DNA of 64,000 bases from a phage: sequence record NC_102531.1; one strand, written 5' to 3'. The position numbers and the translations under genes were made by a program. This document shows, one piece after another, positions 1-12,686 of the stretch; positions within the stretch are counted from its first letter, which is position 1; every line of letters starts with the position of its first letter. A model generated the notes under the pieces. The model saw only the letters and a program-made list of their open reading frames with translations, ran no database searches and was not told where the DNA came from.

Positions 1-495
1 GGCGGACGGAATGGGAATACTTCTCATTCTTATAATAATTCTCAAATATCGAGGCAGTGAGGCAAATTAATAGGCCAGGCCGTTCACACAGTGGCACAAC
101 ATTTGCAACCTATCTTGGGCGGGTGAATGAGAATACCTATCATTGTGAGAACTGTTATCATTACGGGCAATTTAACATAATACCCATTATGCGCACCACT
201 GGCGATACATACAGGGATTGATAACATGGGTTACTGTTTACGCACATAACAATTATATTTCTTACTATTTGTGTGGGATATAGTTAGCAGCCGATAGATT
301 AGATATTAACCTGCAGACTTCTGACCGTCCAGACGTCTAAACGCCCACACACCAAGGATTATACATACACTCCTGAATGTAAACAGGGCCGCAAAAATGC
401 TACCATACAAGCTTGTAAATTTTCCATGCAGCACTTGACAAAGAGGAGAAAAACTTGTCTGACATAATGTGACCTAACTGTCACAACATGACACT

Positions 496-580
496 TTTAC
501 ACACCTATTAGTTTACACACTGGATTGTTTACATTCCTGATTGTTCACATGCTAACCATTTACATGATTGACTGTTTACA
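496..580. repeat. Periodic array of six TTTACA-core repeats (one is TTCACA) at 15-16 bp spacing, cores starting at 496, 512, 528, 544, 559, 575
   Basis: Counted directly in the sequence; non-coding context. Confidence 0.6.
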
Positions 581-592
581 CACCGATAATCA

Positions 593-612
593 GCCATGCC
601 ATTCGTTTGCAT
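593..612. repeat. 20-bp direct repeat gccatgccattcgtttgcat, copy 1
   Basis: Exact match to 824..843. Confidence 0.7.
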
Positions 613-676
613 GACAATAATTATACATGACAATAATCGCACTGATTATAATTAGCATGACATAATATAAAAGCAG

Positions 677-704
677 GGCAACTATTAGCAGATCTATAGT
701 TGCC
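677..704. repeat. Inverted repeat GGCAACTAT / ATAGTTGCC (9-bp arms) around an AGATCT-containing spacer
   Basis: Arms complementary on inspection; related GGCAACTAT / ATAGTTGCC motifs recur near 736 and 843. Confidence 0.5.
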
Positions 705-823
705 TTGCTTGTCATGTCATGATTAACTAAATACAAGGCAACTATGATCTGATTAATAGTTTGCAGACAAACTATCACGGGGGTGATGGTTACTGCTTTT
801 ATATTATGTCGCGACTCCGTCGC

Positions 824-843
824 GCCATGCCATTCGTTTGCAT
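824..843. repeat. 20-bp direct repeat gccatgccattcgtttgcat, copy 2
   Basis: Exact match to 593..612; preceded by palindrome cgcgactccgtcgcg. Confidence 0.7.
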
Positions 844-1454
844 AGTTGCCTTATTGTTACAGGTAAAACAATTACATTATTAATTATTTCTTATCTTTTT
901 CTTAGTCATCTAATGATTCCAGTCAGTATAGTAATGTACAGTAAACATTAGACGACTAAAGATTTCCCTGCTTATGATAACCTAACGTGACAATTACGAA
1001 CTGTTTACGAAAAATGTTGACACCGGGACAGGTTTATGTTATGTAGTTTATACGAATAATTATTTTGTACAGGTATTGACTATTCCGTTATTCTGTGGTC
1101 GGAATAAATACTTTGCAGGCTATAGAATGGTGATCGTACGTGGATTCTGAGATCTGTCGGCTATAGTTACACCCGATTTTTCACGTAGGACACGCTTTTT
1201 GGTTTGTGTAAGTGTATGAATTATAAGAATTTTTATTTGTTGACAAGATATTGAAGATATGCATCAGGTTAAAATTTATGCAGTAGCGGCATTACGTGCA
1301 ATTTTGGAAGAGAAAACGGGTAAAAATGACACTGCTACCACACAATGAAAAGTTATGCAATAGTTATTTTACCTGTATGTTTGTACAGTGAGGGCAATTG
1401 CTGGCTTGTTGGTTATTCCACTTGTCAGGCGGGGCCGTTTGTGGTAGGAAAAGA

Positions 1455-1485
1455 GCAGACAAAAAGAAAGGGGCCTAAGCCCCTT
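1455..1485 (-). terminator. Intrinsic terminator closing the leftward early block
   Basis: Stem AGGGGC / GCCCCT with loop CTAA, followed on the minus strand by TCTTTTTGTC; lies just downstream of the stop at 1498. Confidence 0.55.
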
Positions 1486-1497
1486 GATAATGTTGTA

Positions 1498-1761
1498 TTA
1501 TTTGTTACTCATCCAGCTTTCCCAAGCTGCCTGATAATCTGCCTCACTACGGCGGATCTCTTCTTGCTCTTCAAGGCGGATCTCTTCTTCAAGGTACCCC
1601 AGGATATCGGATTTTTTGGTCTGGCGTAGCATCCAGTCATCTTTTTTGCGGGTAAAGATCTTATAAGCTTTCTCGCAAACCTCTTTTTTGCTACCTTTTT
1701 GGACTTCAAGAATTCTGTAGGCCATGTACTGAACTAATTTAAGCTGATCCAGACGTTTCAT
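1498..1761 (-). CDS. Hypothetical early protein (87 aa)
   Basis: ORF with AAGAGGA Shine-Dalgarno upstream; terminator downstream. Confidence 0.5.
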   Translation of the reverse strand: MKRLDQLKLVQYMAYRILEVQKGSKKEVCEKAYKIFTRKKDDWMLRQTKKSDILGYLEEEIRLEEQEEIRRSEADYQAAWESWMSNK

Positions 1762-8532: not shown

Positions 8533-8590
8533 TGTGTTGATAAACTATCTTTATAGATGGCCCTGCTACCAGGACCACCGAAAAAACAGT

Positions 8591-8836
8591 TTATTTGACG
8601 ATACCGACAAAACAGATCCCGCCTTCCCCTATATAGGCAATATCGGTAATTTTATAATTTGTCAAGATCCGCGTGTTCAGCTCATTAATAAAATCTGTCA
8701 TCGCGTTGGTGTAGTTGTCTTCCATGTCTAGGGAATAATCCCAGGTGTAAACCTTTTTACGTCCGAAGCCTTTTACCATGATACGGGCGCTTTTGGTGTT
8801 AGTAGGAGCATAATACTTGGTGATTAGTGCTGCCAT
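8591..8836 (-). CDS. Hypothetical protein (81 aa)
   Basis: ORF with AAGGAG Shine-Dalgarno, downstream of the family A promoter. Confidence 0.5.
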   Translation of the reverse strand: MAALITKYYAPTNTKSARIMVKGFGRKKVYTWDYSLDMEDNYTNAMTDFINELNTRILTNYKITDIAYIGEGGICFVGIVK

Positions 8837-8877
8837 GGTTTTAACTCCTTTGCATTAGTTCAGTGTTAACAGTATAA

Positions 8878-8907
8878 AGTTTACTTTATTGATGGCCCTG
8901 GAGTCAA
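8878..8907 (-). promoter_or_regulatory. Sigma70-like promoter, family A copy 2 (-35 TTGACT, 18-nt spacer, -10 TAAACT)
   Basis: 50-bp element 8880..8929 identical to 5137..5186. Confidence 0.45.
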
Positions 8908-8926
8908 GGCCATCTAAAAATAAATT

Positions 8927-9268
8927 TTACTCGTTTTCTTCCAGCTTTGAAAGCTCTTCTTTCACTTCTTCAAGCTCTGTCTGCAATTCTTGGTACTCTT
9001 CATCGTCCTCAATATCCAGGCTGTCGATGTAGTCGCTAAATCCGCAGCGGTAAGCGATAGGATCTAACTCCTTGAGGATACGCGACGGAAGAAAAGAAAT
9101 GTTTCCGATCATAATTTCGCCATAAACCTCGTCTAGCCATTCATCATAGTTTTCGTCGTACTTGTCCTCGTCGATTTCAAAGTTATCGATCTTATTCTCA
9201 AGGTCTGCGATCTGTTTTTTCAGAGCGGCGATCTGCAGGGCTTTTTCTTCGGCGGTCATAGTAGTCAT
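8927..9268 (-). CDS. Acidic coiled-coil protein (113 aa)
   Basis: ORF; heptad-like acidic sequence. Confidence 0.5.
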   Translation of the reverse strand: MTTMTAEEKALQIAALKKQIADLENKIDNFEIDEDKYDENYDEWLDEVYGEIMIGNISFLPSRILKELDPIAYRCGFSDYIDSLDIEDDEEYQELQTELEEVKEELSKLEENE

Positions 9269-9319
9269 GGTGTTTTTCTCCTTTCGTGTGTCTGGGGAAG
9301 TTTTCCCGTCTATGTGCTT

Positions 9320-9347
9320 AGTATACTGATCTAAGTTAGCTTGTCAA
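9320..9347 (-). promoter_or_regulatory. Sigma70-like promoter, family B copy 2 (-35 TTGACA, 16-nt spacer, -10 TATACT)
   Basis: Same architecture as 7451..7479, followed by a GGGAA / TTCCC hairpin. Confidence 0.5.
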
Positions 9348-9467
9348 TTAAAAGTTTAAGAAAAATTTTGCTACACCGTTGGCGCTACCCATCAACATTT
9401 GCGCCAGGATGTAACCAATGATGCAAACGATAATAGTTACCTTTGTGTGCTGGCGTGTAGTGCTCAT
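9348..9467 (-). CDS. Small membrane peptide (39 aa, MSTTRQHTKVTIIVCIIGYILAQMLMGSANGVAKFFLNF)
   Basis: Hand-translated codon by codon; AGGAGG Shine-Dalgarno 7 nt upstream. Confidence 0.35.
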   Translation of the reverse strand: MSTTRQHTKVTIIVCIIGYILAQMLMGSANGVAKFFLNF

Positions 9468-9542
9468 CTTTAAGCCTCCTTTTCCGCTTAATTGTGGTTA
9501 GTTTACTTTATTGATTGGAGTCAAGGCCATCTAAAAATAAAC

Positions 9543-9938
9543 TCAATAAGTTTTTAGTACTTTCCCGTCCAATCTGTCAAGCTGGATCTCGATAGCTGCA
9601 GAAAACCTATTGTAAACCACATCGCCCAAGGAGTCCAGCCAATCTATGACGTTATACACCTGCTCTTTATTCTTGCAAGTCCGGATCCGTTTCATTACGT
9701 AAGACGGATCAATATTAGTGCTCTCGTTGTTGTGGTCATGCGCCTGGCCTGCCGCATTAGTTATAGATTTTACAACCACCTGAAAAGGCTTTAAGGTGCC
9801 TTTTGCGTTCATCTCACGCGCTTTTGCGGCGCGGTTGTTATATGTTACACAACGGCGGCAAATGTTGACTAAATGCATGTCAATAATTTTTTCATCGTTT
9901 GCCAGTTCGTTCATGATGCGGCGTACGTTCTTATTCAT
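9543..9938 (-). CDS. Hypothetical protein (131 aa)
   Basis: ORF with AGGAAA Shine-Dalgarno. Confidence 0.5.
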   Translation of the reverse strand: MNKNVRRIMNELANDEKIIDMHLVNICRRCVTYNNRAAKAREMNAKGTLKPFQVVVKSITNAAGQAHDHNNESTNIDPSYVMKRIRTCKNKEQVYNVIDWLDSLGDVVYNRFSAAIEIQLDRLDGKVLKTY

Positions 9939-9957
9939 GATCTTTTTCCTTTGTGTT

Positions 9958-9978
9958 GGCGGGAAACATTCCCGTCTT
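9958..9978 (-). promoter_or_regulatory. 5' UTR stem-loop GGCGGGAA aca TTCCCGTC, family B copy 3
   Basis: Same hairpin as 7422..7440 with one wobble pair. Confidence 0.4.
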
Positions 9979-10025
9979 TTGTGTATAGTTTACTTGAATT
10001 TTGCAGCGTGTCAATAATTTTTTTT

Positions 10026-10424
10026 TTATTCGTGGGCACATGTTACAATGTGCTTTTTATAGCCCAGGTGGTTAGCAAGTGCCGCCAAAAACTCTTCTTC
10101 ATAGATCCAGCCGTCGGCAGTGATTCCCATGGCACTTAATGCGCTTTCAAGTGCAGCGTTGGCTTTATCATAACCGTGACCGCTCGCCTTGCCGCCAGTA
10201 TAACCGTACTTATTGTTCTTGTTGTCGTGAATCCAAAATACACAGTAGTGAGTGTTACCGCTGGCGGCGGCATAGTACCGGATCTCCGCTACTTCGTGCA
10301 AATTATTATCATCGTCCAGGCCAACCAGATTATAGGCCTTGTAGAATCCGCGATCACGGCGGCAGCTTTTAACATCAGAAAAAGAGAAGTCAGCATTGTC
10401 AAAATTAAAGGTTGTGGTTTTCAT
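10026..10424 (-). CDS. Hypothetical protein (132 aa)
   Basis: ORF. Confidence 0.5.
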   Translation of the reverse strand: MKTTTFNFDNADFSFSDVKSCRRDRGFYKAYNLVGLDDDNNLHEVAEIRYYAAASGNTHYCVFWIHDNKNNKYGYTGGKASGHGYDKANAALESALSAMGITADGWIYEEEFLAALANHLGYKKHIVTCAHE

Positions 10425-10488
10425 GATTTTATCCTCTTAGTGTCTTTTGTGCTTTCAGTATATTTTGTTTCAGACTACATGTCAATAT

Positions 10489-10686
10489 TTATTTTTTATT
10501 AAACCAGTGGTTGATCTGACCTTTTGTCAGGGCGCAACGATTAAGCTGTTGCAGGGTATAGCTATGACCGCGACGAAATTTATAAAGGCCTTGCCCGTTG
10601 TTGATGGTTACATCCACCCGGCAAATCACTTGATTGGTGACCACCTGGCGAGTGTTGCGACGTACTTTGATCCCGTATGCGTTCAT
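10489..10686 (-). CDS. Hypothetical protein (65 aa; start at the internal ATG)
   Basis: ATG at 10686 preceded by AAAGAGGA. Confidence 0.4.
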   Translation of the reverse strand: MNAYGIKVRRNTRQVVTNQVICRVDVTINNGQGLYKFRRGHSYTLQQLNRCALTKGQINHWFNKK

Positions 10687-10767
10687 AAATTTATCCTCTT
10701 TACTGGTTAGTGCGGTGTTGTTCACCTTGTAGGGTAATAATACCATGATTAACCTTGTTGTCAACGA

Positions 10768-10941
10768 CTATTTTAAATTATTTTTATGATAGAATCCACC
10801 TGCCGCCCCCGCTAGGTTAACCACCATTTTTTCGTACTCTTCTTTATGTTCCAACGCTCCCGCCATAGCCTTTTCAACCAGGGCGATAGCCTCAGCGTCA
10901 TTAATCGCTACATTCTCCAGGTGAGTAGCATTACCTTTCAT
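10768..10941 (-). CDS. Small protein (57 aa, MKGNATHLENVAINDAEAIALVEKAMAGALEHKEEYEKMVVNLAGAAGGFYHKNNLK)
   Basis: Hand-translated; GAGGAGG Shine-Dalgarno 6 nt upstream. Confidence 0.35.
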   Translation of the reverse strand: MKGNATHLENVAINDAEAIALVEKAMAGALEHKEEYEKMVVNLAGAAGGFYHKNNLK

Positions 10942-11067
10942 TTTTGTACCTCCTCTTCAATTGTTTACCCTACTACCAGGTTTGCAAGCTTTCACCCCCC
11001 TGCCAGGCTGGCCCCGCCAGGTTGCAACGGTTAGCGCATCAGGTTAGAAAAAATTTTTTGAAAAGTG

Positions 11068-11096
11068 TTGACAGCGGCCCCGCCGGGTGGCACAAT
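11068..11096 (+). promoter_or_regulatory. Plus-strand promoter-like unit 1 (-35 TTGACA, AT-rich upstream, weak -10 CACAAT with TG at -15)
   Basis: Perfect -35 hexamer; weak -10; no ORF downstream. Confidence 0.35.
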
Positions 11097-11211
11097 ATAC
11101 CTATCGAAAGGACGGCAGGCACCGGTGACGGGGGAGACAACCACCGGGGATGGGCGCTGCATAAAATGAGAACGGTTATCATTATCATTTAAAAATTTAT
11201 GCAAAAAGTCC

Positions 11212-11242
11212 TTGCTTTCTTTGTCCTGTGTGATACTATAAT
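11212..11242 (+). promoter_or_regulatory. Plus-strand promoter-like unit 2 (-35 TTGCTT, -10 TATAAT)
   Basis: Perfect -10 hexamer at 11237..11242; downstream region shares GGGAGACAA and GAGAAnGnTTATCATT motifs with unit 1. Confidence 0.4.
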
Positions 11243-11358
11243 AACAAGCCGGGGCAACAGGGGCCGGGAGACAATCACCGGGCCTGCCCGTTATTCTGCA
11301 AACGAGAATGATTATCATTCAAAATTCTAAATGAGAACTCCTCGCATTTAATAAATTT

Positions 11359-11374
11359 AATTAGCATGCTAATT
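11359..11374. repeat. 16-bp perfect palindrome AATTAGCATGCTAATT (candidate operator)
   Basis: Self-complementary on inspection. Confidence 0.5.
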
Positions 11375-11523
11375 ACCCTCCGTAACAATTTCCTATAAAA
11401 CAGTATCCCATAAAATATTCCCATATAGAAATTTTAAAAATCCATTTCTGAAAACGAAAAATCGATTTCGTCCCCAAAAATTTCAGGTCGAGATCCGGAA
11501 CGATTTCCAGAAAATCCGGTTCA

Positions 11524-11547
11524 GAAAACGAAAAACAGATCGAGTAC
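11524..11547. repeat. Direct repeat GAAAACGAAAAACAGATCGAGTAC, copy b
   Basis: 22 bp identical to 11591..11612; partial copy at 11450..11466; contains GATC. Confidence 0.6.
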
Positions 11548-11589
11548 TGAGAAATTTATCGAGAAAAATTTTCAGAAAATTCAATCTTT

Positions 11590-11612
11590 GAAACGAAAAA
11601 CAGATCGAGTAC
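11590..11612. repeat. Direct repeat GAAACGAAAAACAGATCGAGTAC, copy c
   Basis: Matches copy b. Confidence 0.6.
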
Positions 11613-11924
11613 CTGGAAAGCTGCACCGCAACTTCAAGATAGTGGTTGGATTATTACCATAAAAGGTCAAGGGTAAGTGGAGGAAGTTCTGGTAGAAGGG
11701 TGTGAGCATGTGCGGGAAATCTGTAATGGTGGTCTGGAATATGGTGCAAACGATAGGATGAGTGGTTCATCTCGCCATGCCTGCTCTGAAAAATCCATTT
11801 TAGTTTTCGATCCATTTTCTGATTTTCTAAGGATTTTAAAATATCCAGCCTGGTGAAATATCAAAAGGAGGAAATCCATTTTAGAAATCCCCCTTACACT
11901 TGATATGCCAGGAATTTTCAAGTA

Positions 11925-12254
11925 TCAGCTGTCTTTGTTTTTAGGTTTGTACATGCGCAGAGGTATGGTCTTTGTAACACTCCATTTCCTCAACCCTTCC
12001 CAGCTCCAGTTGTGGGCGTGGTATCCGGTTATGCATGCACTGCTGGCGTGATCATAAGCATAAGAGAACGCTATGTGCACCAGGTGGGGCCAGTCCTTCC
12101 ACGGCTGTGGACCGTAAGCCTTTCTCCAACACCGACACAAACTAATTGTCTCAAGAATAGGGAGAATAACAATTCCATATACCACCACCAGAATGGTCAG
12201 TGCAATGATTGTCAGGAACACATACCCTGCAGTTGAAATGATGATCTCTGTCAT
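11925..12254 (-). CDS. Membrane protein (109 aa)
   Basis: ORF; N-terminal hydrophobic helix. Confidence 0.45.
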   Translation of the reverse strand: MTEIIISTAGYVFLTIIALTILVVVYGIVILPILETISLCRCWRKAYGPQPWKDWPHLVHIAFSYAYDHASSACITGYHAHNWSWEGLRKWSVTKTIPLRMYKPKNKDS

Positions 12255-12454
12255 TTGTCGTCCCCTTTCTTACGAATATAGATGTGAGAGCCTGCCTGTA
12301 TATAAATTTCTCGACCATCCTCTGCAAAGATATGAAATACACGATCACCTTCGTACTCGATACGAGATATCTTCATAATGGTCTTTCCACCTGGGATACG
12401 GATCTCGTCTCCCACAGCGATGTTCCATGCAGATTTAAGCTTAAACATCTGCAC
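12251..12454 (-). CDS. Hypothetical protein (67 aa)
   Basis: ORF with 4-nt overlap to the downstream gene. Confidence 0.45.
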   Translation of the reverse strand: MQMFKLKSAWNIAVGDEIRIPGGKTIMKISRIEYEGDRVFHIFAEDGREIYIQAGSHIYIRKKGDDK

Positions 12455-12686
12455 CCTCCTTTGGGAACTTGAACTCTGGCATAGCCATATACGCTACAAC
12501 AGGGTTGTGATCAAAGTAGAACTGACCGTTAATTATCCCGGTTTTGTCCACATAGTTACCAGATCCTGCAAGAACAACCTCGCAAGCTCCGAAATCTACA
12601 TTGCCATCCTCATCAGCCATAGCTACAATATACTTTCCTAGGGGCATGTTTTTAACGCCGTCTACAAATGTCCACCCTTTGTTCAT
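12441..12686 (-). CDS. Hypothetical protein (81 aa)
   Basis: ORF. Confidence 0.45.
   Translation of the reverse strand: MNKGWTFVDGVKNMPLGKYIVAMADEDGNVDFGACEVVLAGSGNYVDKTGIINGQFYFDHNPVVAYMAMPEFKFPKEGADV

Follow-up and report, generated by a model that had tools for sequence, protein, structure and literature searches.

Conservation and coding content of the region

The 64,000-nucleotide phage DNA analyzed here (sequence record NC_102531.1), hereafter the window, contains at positions 10945 to 11924 a largely gene-free stretch which we call the hub. It lies between two blocks of small leftward genes whose functions were not recognised, and it combines a duplicated module of promoter, leader hairpin, and Fur box-like palindromes with an AT-rich region bearing three long direct repeats. 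According to our analysis, the hub is best explained as a conserved non-coding control region of rV5-like phages. A megablast search with positions 10700 to 12000 matched 121 phage records at 80 to 99% identity, almost all of them Vequintavirus (rV5-like, ~137 kb), with E. coli O157 typing phage 14 as the top match (94.5%). The window is 93 to 95% identical to Vequintavirus genomes and, judged by these identities, it is the left 64 kb of such a genome. Its start is taken as the physical left genome end, since phage EdH4 has an exact direct terminal repeat of 459 bp from which window positions 1 to 460 differ at only 10 positions. Counted from this end, the hub lies at 8.0 to 8.7% of a genome of ~136 kb. 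Pfam and PHROGs searches with the small proteins flanking or associated with the hub returned only families of unknown function, including DUF7170, and a tRNA/tmRNA scan of the window detected none.

A sensitive blastn search with positions 11040 to 11345 recovered the second of the two hub units from many other phages, with identities of 72 to 87%; almost all of these matches lie in DNA without annotation. The paired motifs of the preliminary description of this region are conserved in relatives, which include Seunavirus (PVP-SE1 and 4MG), Certrevirus (PcCB7V), Mydovirus (Mydo and KB57), Avunavirus (24-2-1), phage W70, Phapecoctavirus (ESCO13), and an Aeromonas Plateaulakevirus (phage 2L372X). 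At the loci of these nine phages, which were compared in detail, the element sits without exception in a gap of 1 to 1.3 kb between minus-strand gene blocks and is oriented against them. The order of features is also common to them: an optional small plus-strand open reading frame (ORF) is followed by a promoter with a second RNA-like element, the string TTTGTAAAGAnnTGTAAAGA, another promoter, a hairpin with the loop GAGACAAnCACCG, one to four 19-bp palindromes, a further promoter, three iterons, a variable stretch, and AAATATCA repeats. Taxonomically, the layout extends to further genera of Vequintavirinae, to Stephanstirmvirinae, and to an Aeromonas phage. Within Vequintavirus, positions 11020 to 11640 and 11790 to 11924 are nearly invariant, and positions 10945 to 11020 and 11640 to 11790 vary with indels.

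The hub is not free of annotation. The rV5 record places ORF198 and ORF199 in it, both as hypothetical, and mechanically called ORFs also cross it. A minus-strand ORF of 92 to 95 codons extending over both units is annotated in rV5, EmilHeitz, and JEP1; in EdH4 the annotated ORF is shorter, and the records of isim, BP9, and many others have none. The 95-codon version at 11031 to 11318 is open in six of seven genomes, the exception being EdH4 with a frameshift. Over the codon positions, its variable columns are distributed 10:6:11; its start lies inside a Fur box and lacks a Shine-Dalgarno sequence, and other genera have no equivalent ORF. This ORF looks spurious, with a small residual doubt, and the minus-strand ORFs at 11640 to 11790, a stretch with indels of lengths not divisible by 3, are probably no genes either. 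The tiny frames MRTVIIII and MIIIQNSK reported earlier can be read in the sequence, the former deriving from the Fur boxes at 11165 to 11189 and the latter from those at 11301 to 11348. Leader-peptide attenuation, which had been proposed on account of these frames, was rejected: their Ile codons are the ATCATT/ATTATC half-sites of the Fur boxes, they are accompanied by neither a Shine-Dalgarno sequence nor a terminator/antiterminator pair, and the frame is not conserved, the same box in relatives reading MRMILIQ.... The motifs first listed for the hub are present and non-random, and good coding evidence for it is lacking.

Predicted promoters and leader hairpins

The left half of the hub is one module in two tandem copies, each consisting of a promoter, a 5' leader of 45 to 55 nt predicted to fold as a hairpin, and one or two Fur boxes. 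Two plus-strand promoters had been placed here by the preliminary description, and consensus matching, on which all promoter calls in this work rest, located both of them. Promoter P1 (11068 to 11096) pairs TTGACA (11068 to 11073) with CACAAT (11091 to 11096) over a 17-nt spacer; its -10 element is extended by a TG at 11088-89 (TGgCACAAT) and reads CATAAT in some relatives. P1 is the sole intergenic plus-strand site with a score of at least 10/12 in the first 34 kb, where rightward promoters besides P1 and P2 are nearly absent. Promoter P2 (11212 to 11242) pairs TTGCTT (11212 to 11217) with TATAAT (11237 to 11242) over a spacer of 19 nt, because of which the promoter scanner left it unscored. 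In relatives, the spacer of its homologue is 16 to 18 nt, and in the window an extended -10 element TGtGATACT (11229 to 11237) is an alternative reading. Both hub promoters and the hairpin that follows are kept across genera.

The left edge of the hub (10945 to 11067), which is indel variable among Vequintavirus genomes up to ~11020, includes an A/T tract (11044 to 11064) immediately upstream of P1 and the string GGCCCCGCCAGGTTGCA (11010 to 11026), which recurs inside the P1 spacer (11076 to 11092). These two GC-rich copies conform to GGCCCCGCC(A/G)GGT, and hub promoters of other genera have similar GC-rich palindromic spacers (cggccccggcctggg, gcccggcgggcctgg) between -35 and -10. This hints at a common promoter subtype or an extra protein site.

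The motifs shared by the two units exceed chance expectation: GGGAGACAAYCACCGGG, found at 11132 and 11266, has four matches in 64 kb versus 0.23 expected, and GAGAAnGnTTATCATT, found at 11168 and 11304, has seven versus 0.85 expected. The string 'GGGAGACAA..CACCGGG' forms the loop of a predicted plus-strand hairpin close to the promoter. In unit 2, this hairpin spans 11244 to 11300, its loop holds GGGAGACAATCACCGGG (11266 to 11282), and it is the orthologue of the hairpin in every related hub. The plus-strand hairpin of unit 1 (11115 to 11160), whose loop holds GGGAGACAACCACCGGG (11132 to 11148), is a diverged paralogue. A covariance model scores unit 2 at 43 bits (E=5e-8) and a minus-strand copy at 2487 to 2545 at 28 bits, and it misses the unit 1 hairpin. 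The loop GAGACAAnCACCG is conserved among the homologues and the stems vary, and all homologues stand at a fixed distance behind a sigma-70-like promoter, with predicted starts near ACACAT(A/G)GCG.

Single-sequence folds mostly give an outer stem and a short inner stem closing the loop, the outer stem pairing AUAGCGGG with CCCGCUAU in Certrevirus and GGCAGGCACC with GGUGCCUGUC in the 2487-2545 copy. In an unfitted alignment, the outer helix is 86% paired, versus 32 to 46% with the partner columns slid. Four pairs change on both sides in an alignment of 24 sequences, the covariation of which is 0.190 versus 0.143 when shuffled, with 0 of 500 shuffles reaching it; this alignment was fitted to the covariance model and leans toward it. 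Many G-U pairs occur in the helix (38 cells in three columns), and since they would be C.A on the opposite strand, a plus-strand transcript is favored. An Rfam search of the window and four related hubs, at gathering and permissive thresholds (even E<=10), gave no match. Pattern scans of metagenomes and IMG/VR added few further homologues, so the hairpin appears to be restricted to this phage group.

The preliminary description located both units correctly; the hairpin, however, is not confined to the hub. On the minus strand at 2487 to 2577, a promoter TTGCAA-16-TATACT (2577-2550) precedes a hairpin formed by GGCAGGCACC..GGTGCCTGTC with an exact third copy of the loop GGGAGACAATCACCGGG (2521-2505). 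This copy runs in the same direction as the genes and is without a good Fur box. Its promoter sits in the T-tail of a terminator-like hairpin (2590-2557), and a second promoter, TTGACA-17-TAACAT (2473-2445), comes after the 2487-2545 hairpin. Klebsiella-phage relatives have a second copy, on the minus strand ~7 kb left of the hub, in which the hairpin is followed by a 15/18 Fur box and then a gene. Because these second copies repeat the arrangement, promoter, hairpin, and Fur box appear to form a reusable module.

We also observed the second RNA-like element mentioned above (..GAAGAGGAAACGCCACCCCACGGCGAAAAGGCGGGGCTAAC..GGAAGGTGGATCGCCGGTAG..), strongly conserved behind its own promoter in PVP-SE1, ESCO13, Mydo, 4MG, KB57, W70, and 24-2-1. 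A CCCC in its loop and a GGGG downstream suggest a possible pseudoknot. The element (GCCACCCCACGGCGnAAAGGCGGGGCTAAC) is absent from the window and has no Rfam match.

Fur boxes and iterons

Judged by its sequence, the second shared motif, GAGAAnGnTTATCATT, is a Fur box of the canonical form AATGAKAATnATTMTCATT. Such boxes are well-known operators of bacteria; that the downstream motif is a host Fur operator had been missed in the earlier reading, and this identity changes the likeliest logic of the region. Unit 1 carries two overlapping boxes at a 6-bp offset (11165 to 11189), namely, AATGAGAACGGTTATCATT at 11165 (16/18) and AACGGTTATCATTATCATT at 11171 (15/18). Unit 2 carries AACGAGAATGATTATCATT at 11301 to 11319 (17/18) and, 29 bp from it, the degenerate second box AATGAGAACTCCTCGCATT at 11330 to 11348 (14/18). 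Further Fur-like boxes lie in the terminal repeat at 10 to 28 (16/18), 126 to 144 (16/18), and 144 to 162 (14/18), and only 10 bp separate the first of them from the end of the DNA. The window has five sites with 15/18 or more matching positions versus 0.23 in shuffles, three in the hub (11165, 11171, and 11301) and two in the terminal repeat (10 and 126). The boxes of relatives score 16 to 18/18 and, where multiple, stand 29 bp apart; their palindrome is AATGAGAATGATTCTCATT, or AATGATAATGATTATCATT in 4MG.

The published Fur consensus is AATGAgAATcATTctCATT for Xanthomonas and aaTGAtAATnATTaTCAtt for B. subtilis, the Xanthomonas consensus having been rated 84% identical to those of Shewanella and B. 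subtilis (PMC1790865), and the Fur boxes upstream of iron transporters in E. faecalis read TGAGAATGATTCTCA (PMC6056675). The palindrome of the relatives equals the Xanthomonas consensus, and its core equals the E. faecalis box. The exact 21-mer occurs at 107 bacterial genome loci in many phyla, and in nine hand-picked cases out of 84 neighbors it lies no more than 300 bp upstream of a gene; the products of these nine are TonB-dependent receptors, FeoA, FeoB, Fur, an ECF sigma factor, rubrerythrin, and an iron-type (solute-)binding protein. As far as sequence can tell, the hub boxes have the hallmarks of bacterial Fur operators: a 19-bp 9-1-9 inverted repeat, AATGA(T/G)AATnATT(A/C)TCATT, identical to that before bacterial iron genes, and in unit 1 overlapping sites at a 6-bp offset as in the classical E. 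coli 19-mer. They differ from such operators in lying on a virulent phage, in non-coding DNA with no iron gene, and in being placed downstream of a leader hairpin and in 29-bp arrays, not over the promoter.

An RNA hairpin formed by the box itself was ruled out. Changes in the half-sites are uncompensated, and covariation in the flanks does not go beyond column composition, so the box is deemed a protein site on DNA and not an RNA stem. No Fur homologue is encoded in any Vequintavirinae or T5-like record, which makes host Fur the candidate ligand, and we infer that it may bind the hub boxes in vivo. The boxes are located at ~+62 to +100 from the P1 and P2 starts and ~-60 to -85 from the next start.

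Outside this phage group, the exact Fur-box 19-mer occurs in >120 IMG/VR contigs of 21 to 59% GC, where it often lies ~+8 to +28 after a near-consensus promoter and is at times followed by a terminator-like hairpin or arranged in 30-bp tandem arrays. Some unrelated environmental phage contigs have in common the unit TTGACA-17-(G)ATAAAAT-cGGCGCC-nn-AAATGAGAATGATTCTCATTT, at times again followed by a terminator-like hairpin, and these units may be small Fur-repressed RNA genes. One IMG/VR contig contains three to four exact boxes in 30-bp tandem repeats, and in others a (GAGAAT)n run leads into the box.

To the right of the modules, GC falls to 25 to 33% at 11300 to 11450, and an AT-rich region of 25 to 41% GC at 11419 to 11619 (plus strand) contains three 62-nt iterons, which start at 11419, 11493, and 11558 and are thus spaced 74 and 65 nt. 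Three copies of a 24-mer had been reported here. One is exact (GAAAACGAAAAACAGATCGAGTAC, 11524 to 11547), one is missing an A (GAAACGAAAAACAGATCGAGTAC, 11590 to 11612), and the third is degenerate and shares the first 12 nt only (GAAAACGAAAAATCGATTTCGTCC, 11450 to 11473). In relatives, the iterons are 65 to 95 bp, end in GATCGAGAACC, and are immediately preceded by a third promoter. The iteron core is conserved in seven genera; in W70 and ESCO13 the iteron sequence has been replaced wholesale and the layout is kept. With direct repeats beside AT-rich DNA and P1 and P2 directed into it, the hub is possibly part of a replication origin, one of the options named in the preliminary description.

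The perfect palindrome TAATTAGCATGCTAATTA (11358 to 11375) is 18 bp long, not 16 bp as first given, and its symmetry is broken in some relatives by single non-compensated changes. A variable spacer (11640 to 11790) is the least conserved part of the hub, and the block to its right (11790 to 11924) is almost invariant, with AAATCCATTTT-type repeats at 11791, 11808, and 11874 (a further one is at 11440) and AAATATCC/AAATATCA at 11840 and 11856; AAATATCA repeats mark the right hub end in other genera too. GATC, which had been singled out in the preliminary description, shows no enrichment, with 4 sites per kb in the hub versus 5.1 per kb in the window and none in 10673 to 11491, and control by GATC clustering of the Dam/SeqA type was rejected. 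Window-wide, GATC is over-represented (327 sites versus 215 +/- 13 in shuffles).

Candidate functions of the hub

The reading that we favor, tentatively and at somewhat less than even probability, is that Fur-gated non-coding transcription runs rightward into an AT-rich iteron region with a role in cis, maybe as a replication origin. Host RNA polymerase would start rightward at P1 and P2, against the leftward flanking genes, and Fe2+-Fur on the boxes would limit or modulate read-through into the iteron and AT-rich DNA, or act on the next promoter. The transcription, which would encode no peptide, would then have a cis effect there, and most plausibly it would open or prime a replication origin. 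Since the packaging ends lie elsewhere and nothing seems to be encoded, the most economical of the possible cis functions is that of a transcription-activated origin; a packaging site at the hub itself is unlikely, as the terminal repeats are fixed and lie 11 kb away. Such transcripts, their extent, and an origin function of the hub are predictions. Transcription-activated origins include the T7 primary origin (tandem 1.1A/1.1B promoters plus AT-rich DNA), T4 oriF and oriG (promoter plus unwinding element), and lambda ori (iterons plus AT-rich DNA). The hub shares with these the firing of tandem promoters into AT-rich DNA with adjoining repeats. It differs from them in its host sigma-70 promoters, its iteron spacing of 65 to 95 bp, and the lack of an identified initiator and of a skew signal.

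A number of observations weigh against this reading. As regards Fur, the boxes miss the -35 and -10 elements of P1 and P2, which is the usual position for Fur repression, so that a roadblock or upstream role of Fur is an assumption; the boxes are also more degenerate in Vequintavirus than in relatives. A weak minus-strand promoter-like sequence, TTGAAT-18-CAGAAT, has a Fur box in its spacer, and because it too can be read from the sequence, the direction under control is ambiguous. As regards the RNA, no plus-strand terminator follows either unit in the hub, which leaves the 3' end undefined, and the structural comparison across relatives was divided: the fitted alignment beats its 500 shuffles, whereas covariation in an unfitted alignment of 14 sequences is not above shuffles and RNAalifold on a plain MAFFT alignment of 21 sequences finds no consensus structure. 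The z-scores of single-sequence folds (-1.4 and -2.0) are unremarkable, and the inner stem next to the loop is CCGG/CCGG, UCG/CGA, or GCG/CGC by lineage, with shifts of register. As regards the origin, no DnaA boxes occur in 8543 to 12544, GC skew has no inflection at the hub and follows transcription and gene orientation only, no initiator gene can be identified by family among the flanking proteins, and the iteron spacing of 65 to 95 bp is unlike that of classical iteron origins.

A replication origin to which Fur is inessential is possible but doubtful. Here an initiator of phage or host origin would bind to the iterons, the AT-rich DNA would melt, and transcription from P1 and P2 (in relatives also from the third promoter) would activate or prime synthesis, as in the T7 primary origin or T4 oriF/oriG; the proposal overlaps with Fur-gated transcription and differs only in what the Fur boxes contribute. 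It draws on the iteron core conserved in seven genera, on a layout that outlasts iteron replacement in W70 and ESCO13, on the low GC at 11300 to 11450 with tandem promoters pointing in, on deep conservation without good coding evidence, and on a packaging site that is elsewhere, with the fixed terminal repeats at window position 1. The origin-related objections just listed apply to it in full: the iterons are 65 to 95 bp apart, DnaA boxes and a skew inflection are missing, and the neighbors belong to no recognisable initiator or DNA-binding family. GATC is, in addition, unclustered. The rV5 genome paper likewise could not locate the origin by skew analysis (PMC3606486).

Paralogous plus-strand small RNAs, the first suggestion of the preliminary description, keep the support of conserved promoters and hairpin and of the plus-strand G-U pairs, and lose that of a terminator and an Rfam match; we consider this reading unlikely. 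Transcripts of P1, P2, and the 2487-2545 hairpin would act through the loop GAGACAAnCACCG on phage or host RNA or protein, or in cis on RNA polymerase in the manner of lambda nut or HK022 put. The loop is conserved where the stems vary, three copies per genome lie directly behind promoters, one left and two right, reminiscent of nutL/nutR, the G-U pattern is specific to the plus strand, and unrelated IMG/VR contigs combine a strong promoter, a Fur box at ~+8 to +28, and a terminator-like hairpin. Against this, neither unit has a terminator behind it, no Rfam family matches, the fold statistics are weak, and no complementary target occurs in the window except the copies themselves. The Fur-repressed RNAs RyhB and PrrF have in common with the hub a short non-coding transcript (here predicted) and a Fur box; the hub differs in having no Rfam match, intrinsic plus-strand terminator, or known seed and in the position of the box downstream of the start. 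Lambda nutL/nutR boxB and HK022 putL/putR resemble the hub in hairpins within the first 60 nt, a conserved loop with a variable stem, and copies in both directions. The hub hairpins, however, have no similarity to them in sequence or shape, no boxA, and no identified N-like protein.

That the boxes act as a decoy is improbable. Multicopy Fur boxes are able to titrate Fur, as exploited in the FURTA assay, and replicating phage boxes would in this way derepress host iron uptake and the Fur-repressed ribonucleotide reductase genes, to the advantage of the phage. Arrays of one to four boxes at 29-bp spacing that overlap no promoter, further boxes in the terminal repeat, and the lack of a phage Fur gene would suit such a role. 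However, a genome offers ~5 to 8 sites to the thousands of Fur molecules in a cell, the boxes of T5-like phages are on DNA that is single copy early in infection, and the boxes are fixed right behind promoter and hairpin in every lineage and in both module copies, which points to local regulation. We assign a similarly low probability to the boxes binding a phage-encoded dimeric protein, e.g., an initiator or repressor, that shares the Fur-box sequence by coincidence. A 9-1-9 palindrome in regular arrays is often seen at initiator and repressor sites, and most neighboring proteins have no known function; but the same sequence stands at iron genes in bacteria of many phyla, and a lineage-specific protein fails to explain the boxes in T5-like phages and in the >120 IMG/VR contigs.

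A DNA-entry or early checkpoint like the T5 injection stop signal (iss) is very improbable. In this scenario, the DNA coming into the cell would be paused or organised by host proteins bound at the hub, and the rightward promoters of the hub, almost the only ones in the first 34 kb, might help to pull in the remainder of the genome. The hub position of 8.0 to 8.7% is close to that of T5 iss (7.9%), and the T5-like region, the closest analogue of the hub, is likewise large, conserved, and gene-free; it lies ~8% into the genome, counted from the left end, in a virulent coliphage with terminal repeats, and it contains repeats, palindromes, host-factor sites, a Fur box, and Fur-like repeat arrays. 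In the left terminal repeat of the T5-like phage chee24, a perfect Fur box follows a GC-rich hairpin, and a Fur-like array, partly at 29-bp spacing, lies beside DnaA boxes in untranslated DNA. Yet two-step entry is not known for rV5-like phages, and only the Fur boxes and the relative position are common to the hub and a T5-type injection stop. Paired DnaA boxes occur in the T5 region, which is part of a terminal repeat of ~10 kb, and none occur in the rV5-type hub, which is located outside its 459-bp repeat at a distance of 10.5 kb. Conversely, only the rV5-type hub has promoter-hairpin modules and GATCGAG iterons, and beyond the boxes there is no homology between the two. Finally, Ile-rich leader-peptide attenuators or real minus-strand genes (rV5 ORF198/199) are exceedingly improbable, the readable MRTVIIII and MIIIQNSK frames and the 95-codon ORF open in six of seven genomes and annotated in rV5, EmilHeitz, and JEP1 being outweighed by Ile codons that are Fur-box half-sites, the missing Shine-Dalgarno and terminator/antiterminator sequences, the EdH4 frameshift, the 10:6:11 codon columns, a start within a Fur box, and an ORF that is inconsistently annotated and missing from other genera.

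Returning to Fur-gated transcription, a wider form of the proposal, which we regard as possible though rather unlikely, is that at least two unrelated lineages of virulent phages, the rV5-like myoviruses with their relatives and the T5-like siphoviruses, carry host-Fur operators in conserved non-coding control DNA, coupled to promoter and hairpin in the rV5-like phages, so that an early cis-acting step is gated by host iron. Candidates for this step are the firing of an origin, the entry of the genome, and antisense control over early genes. The layout shared by distant relatives suggests that the control DNA of these phages is linked to the iron status of the host in a way not described so far, and if host Fur binds, rV5-like and T5-like phages would sense the iron status of the host directly. 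Both groups are in wide use for phage therapy and typing, and since iron is limiting in the gut and in infection, phage efficacy in vivo could then be affected. In the literature we found no description of the hub, its RNAs, or Fur sites in rV5-group phages, nothing specific on rV5-group transcriptomes or origins, and no report that Fur boxes are conserved in the non-coding control DNA of virulent phages. What appears to be new is the combination of putative host Fur operators with a conserved module of promoter and hairpin, in phage control DNA that is itself deeply conserved. This gives a first concrete anatomy to DNA annotated as hypothetical ORFs in the rV5 record.

Some minor observations concern the T5-like region and the rest of the genome. 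A detailed analysis of the T5 region discusses DnaA boxes and makes no mention of Fur or LexA (bioRxiv 10.1101/866236); in our comparison, the 'DRD' repeats of the T5 injection-stop region may be Fur sites. Besides two DnaA boxes (TGTGGATAA), the chee24 untranslated region holds the palindrome TACTGTATATTTATACAGTA, which is perfect and resembles an SOS box. A gene-free 'non-coding' box is drawn on the published rV5 map (PMC3606486). A further large unannotated region of ~2.9 kb, terminal repeat included, lies between convergent transcription-unit ends (window 460 to 1500 and EdH4 134614 to 136031), and it may correspond to that box. Finally, 16 to 17 GenBank records labelled 'Campylobacter phage' (e.g., A13b, A141, C9, and C12) are 91 to 98% identical to the E. 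coli Vequintavirus region and look like mislabelled or contaminating phages.

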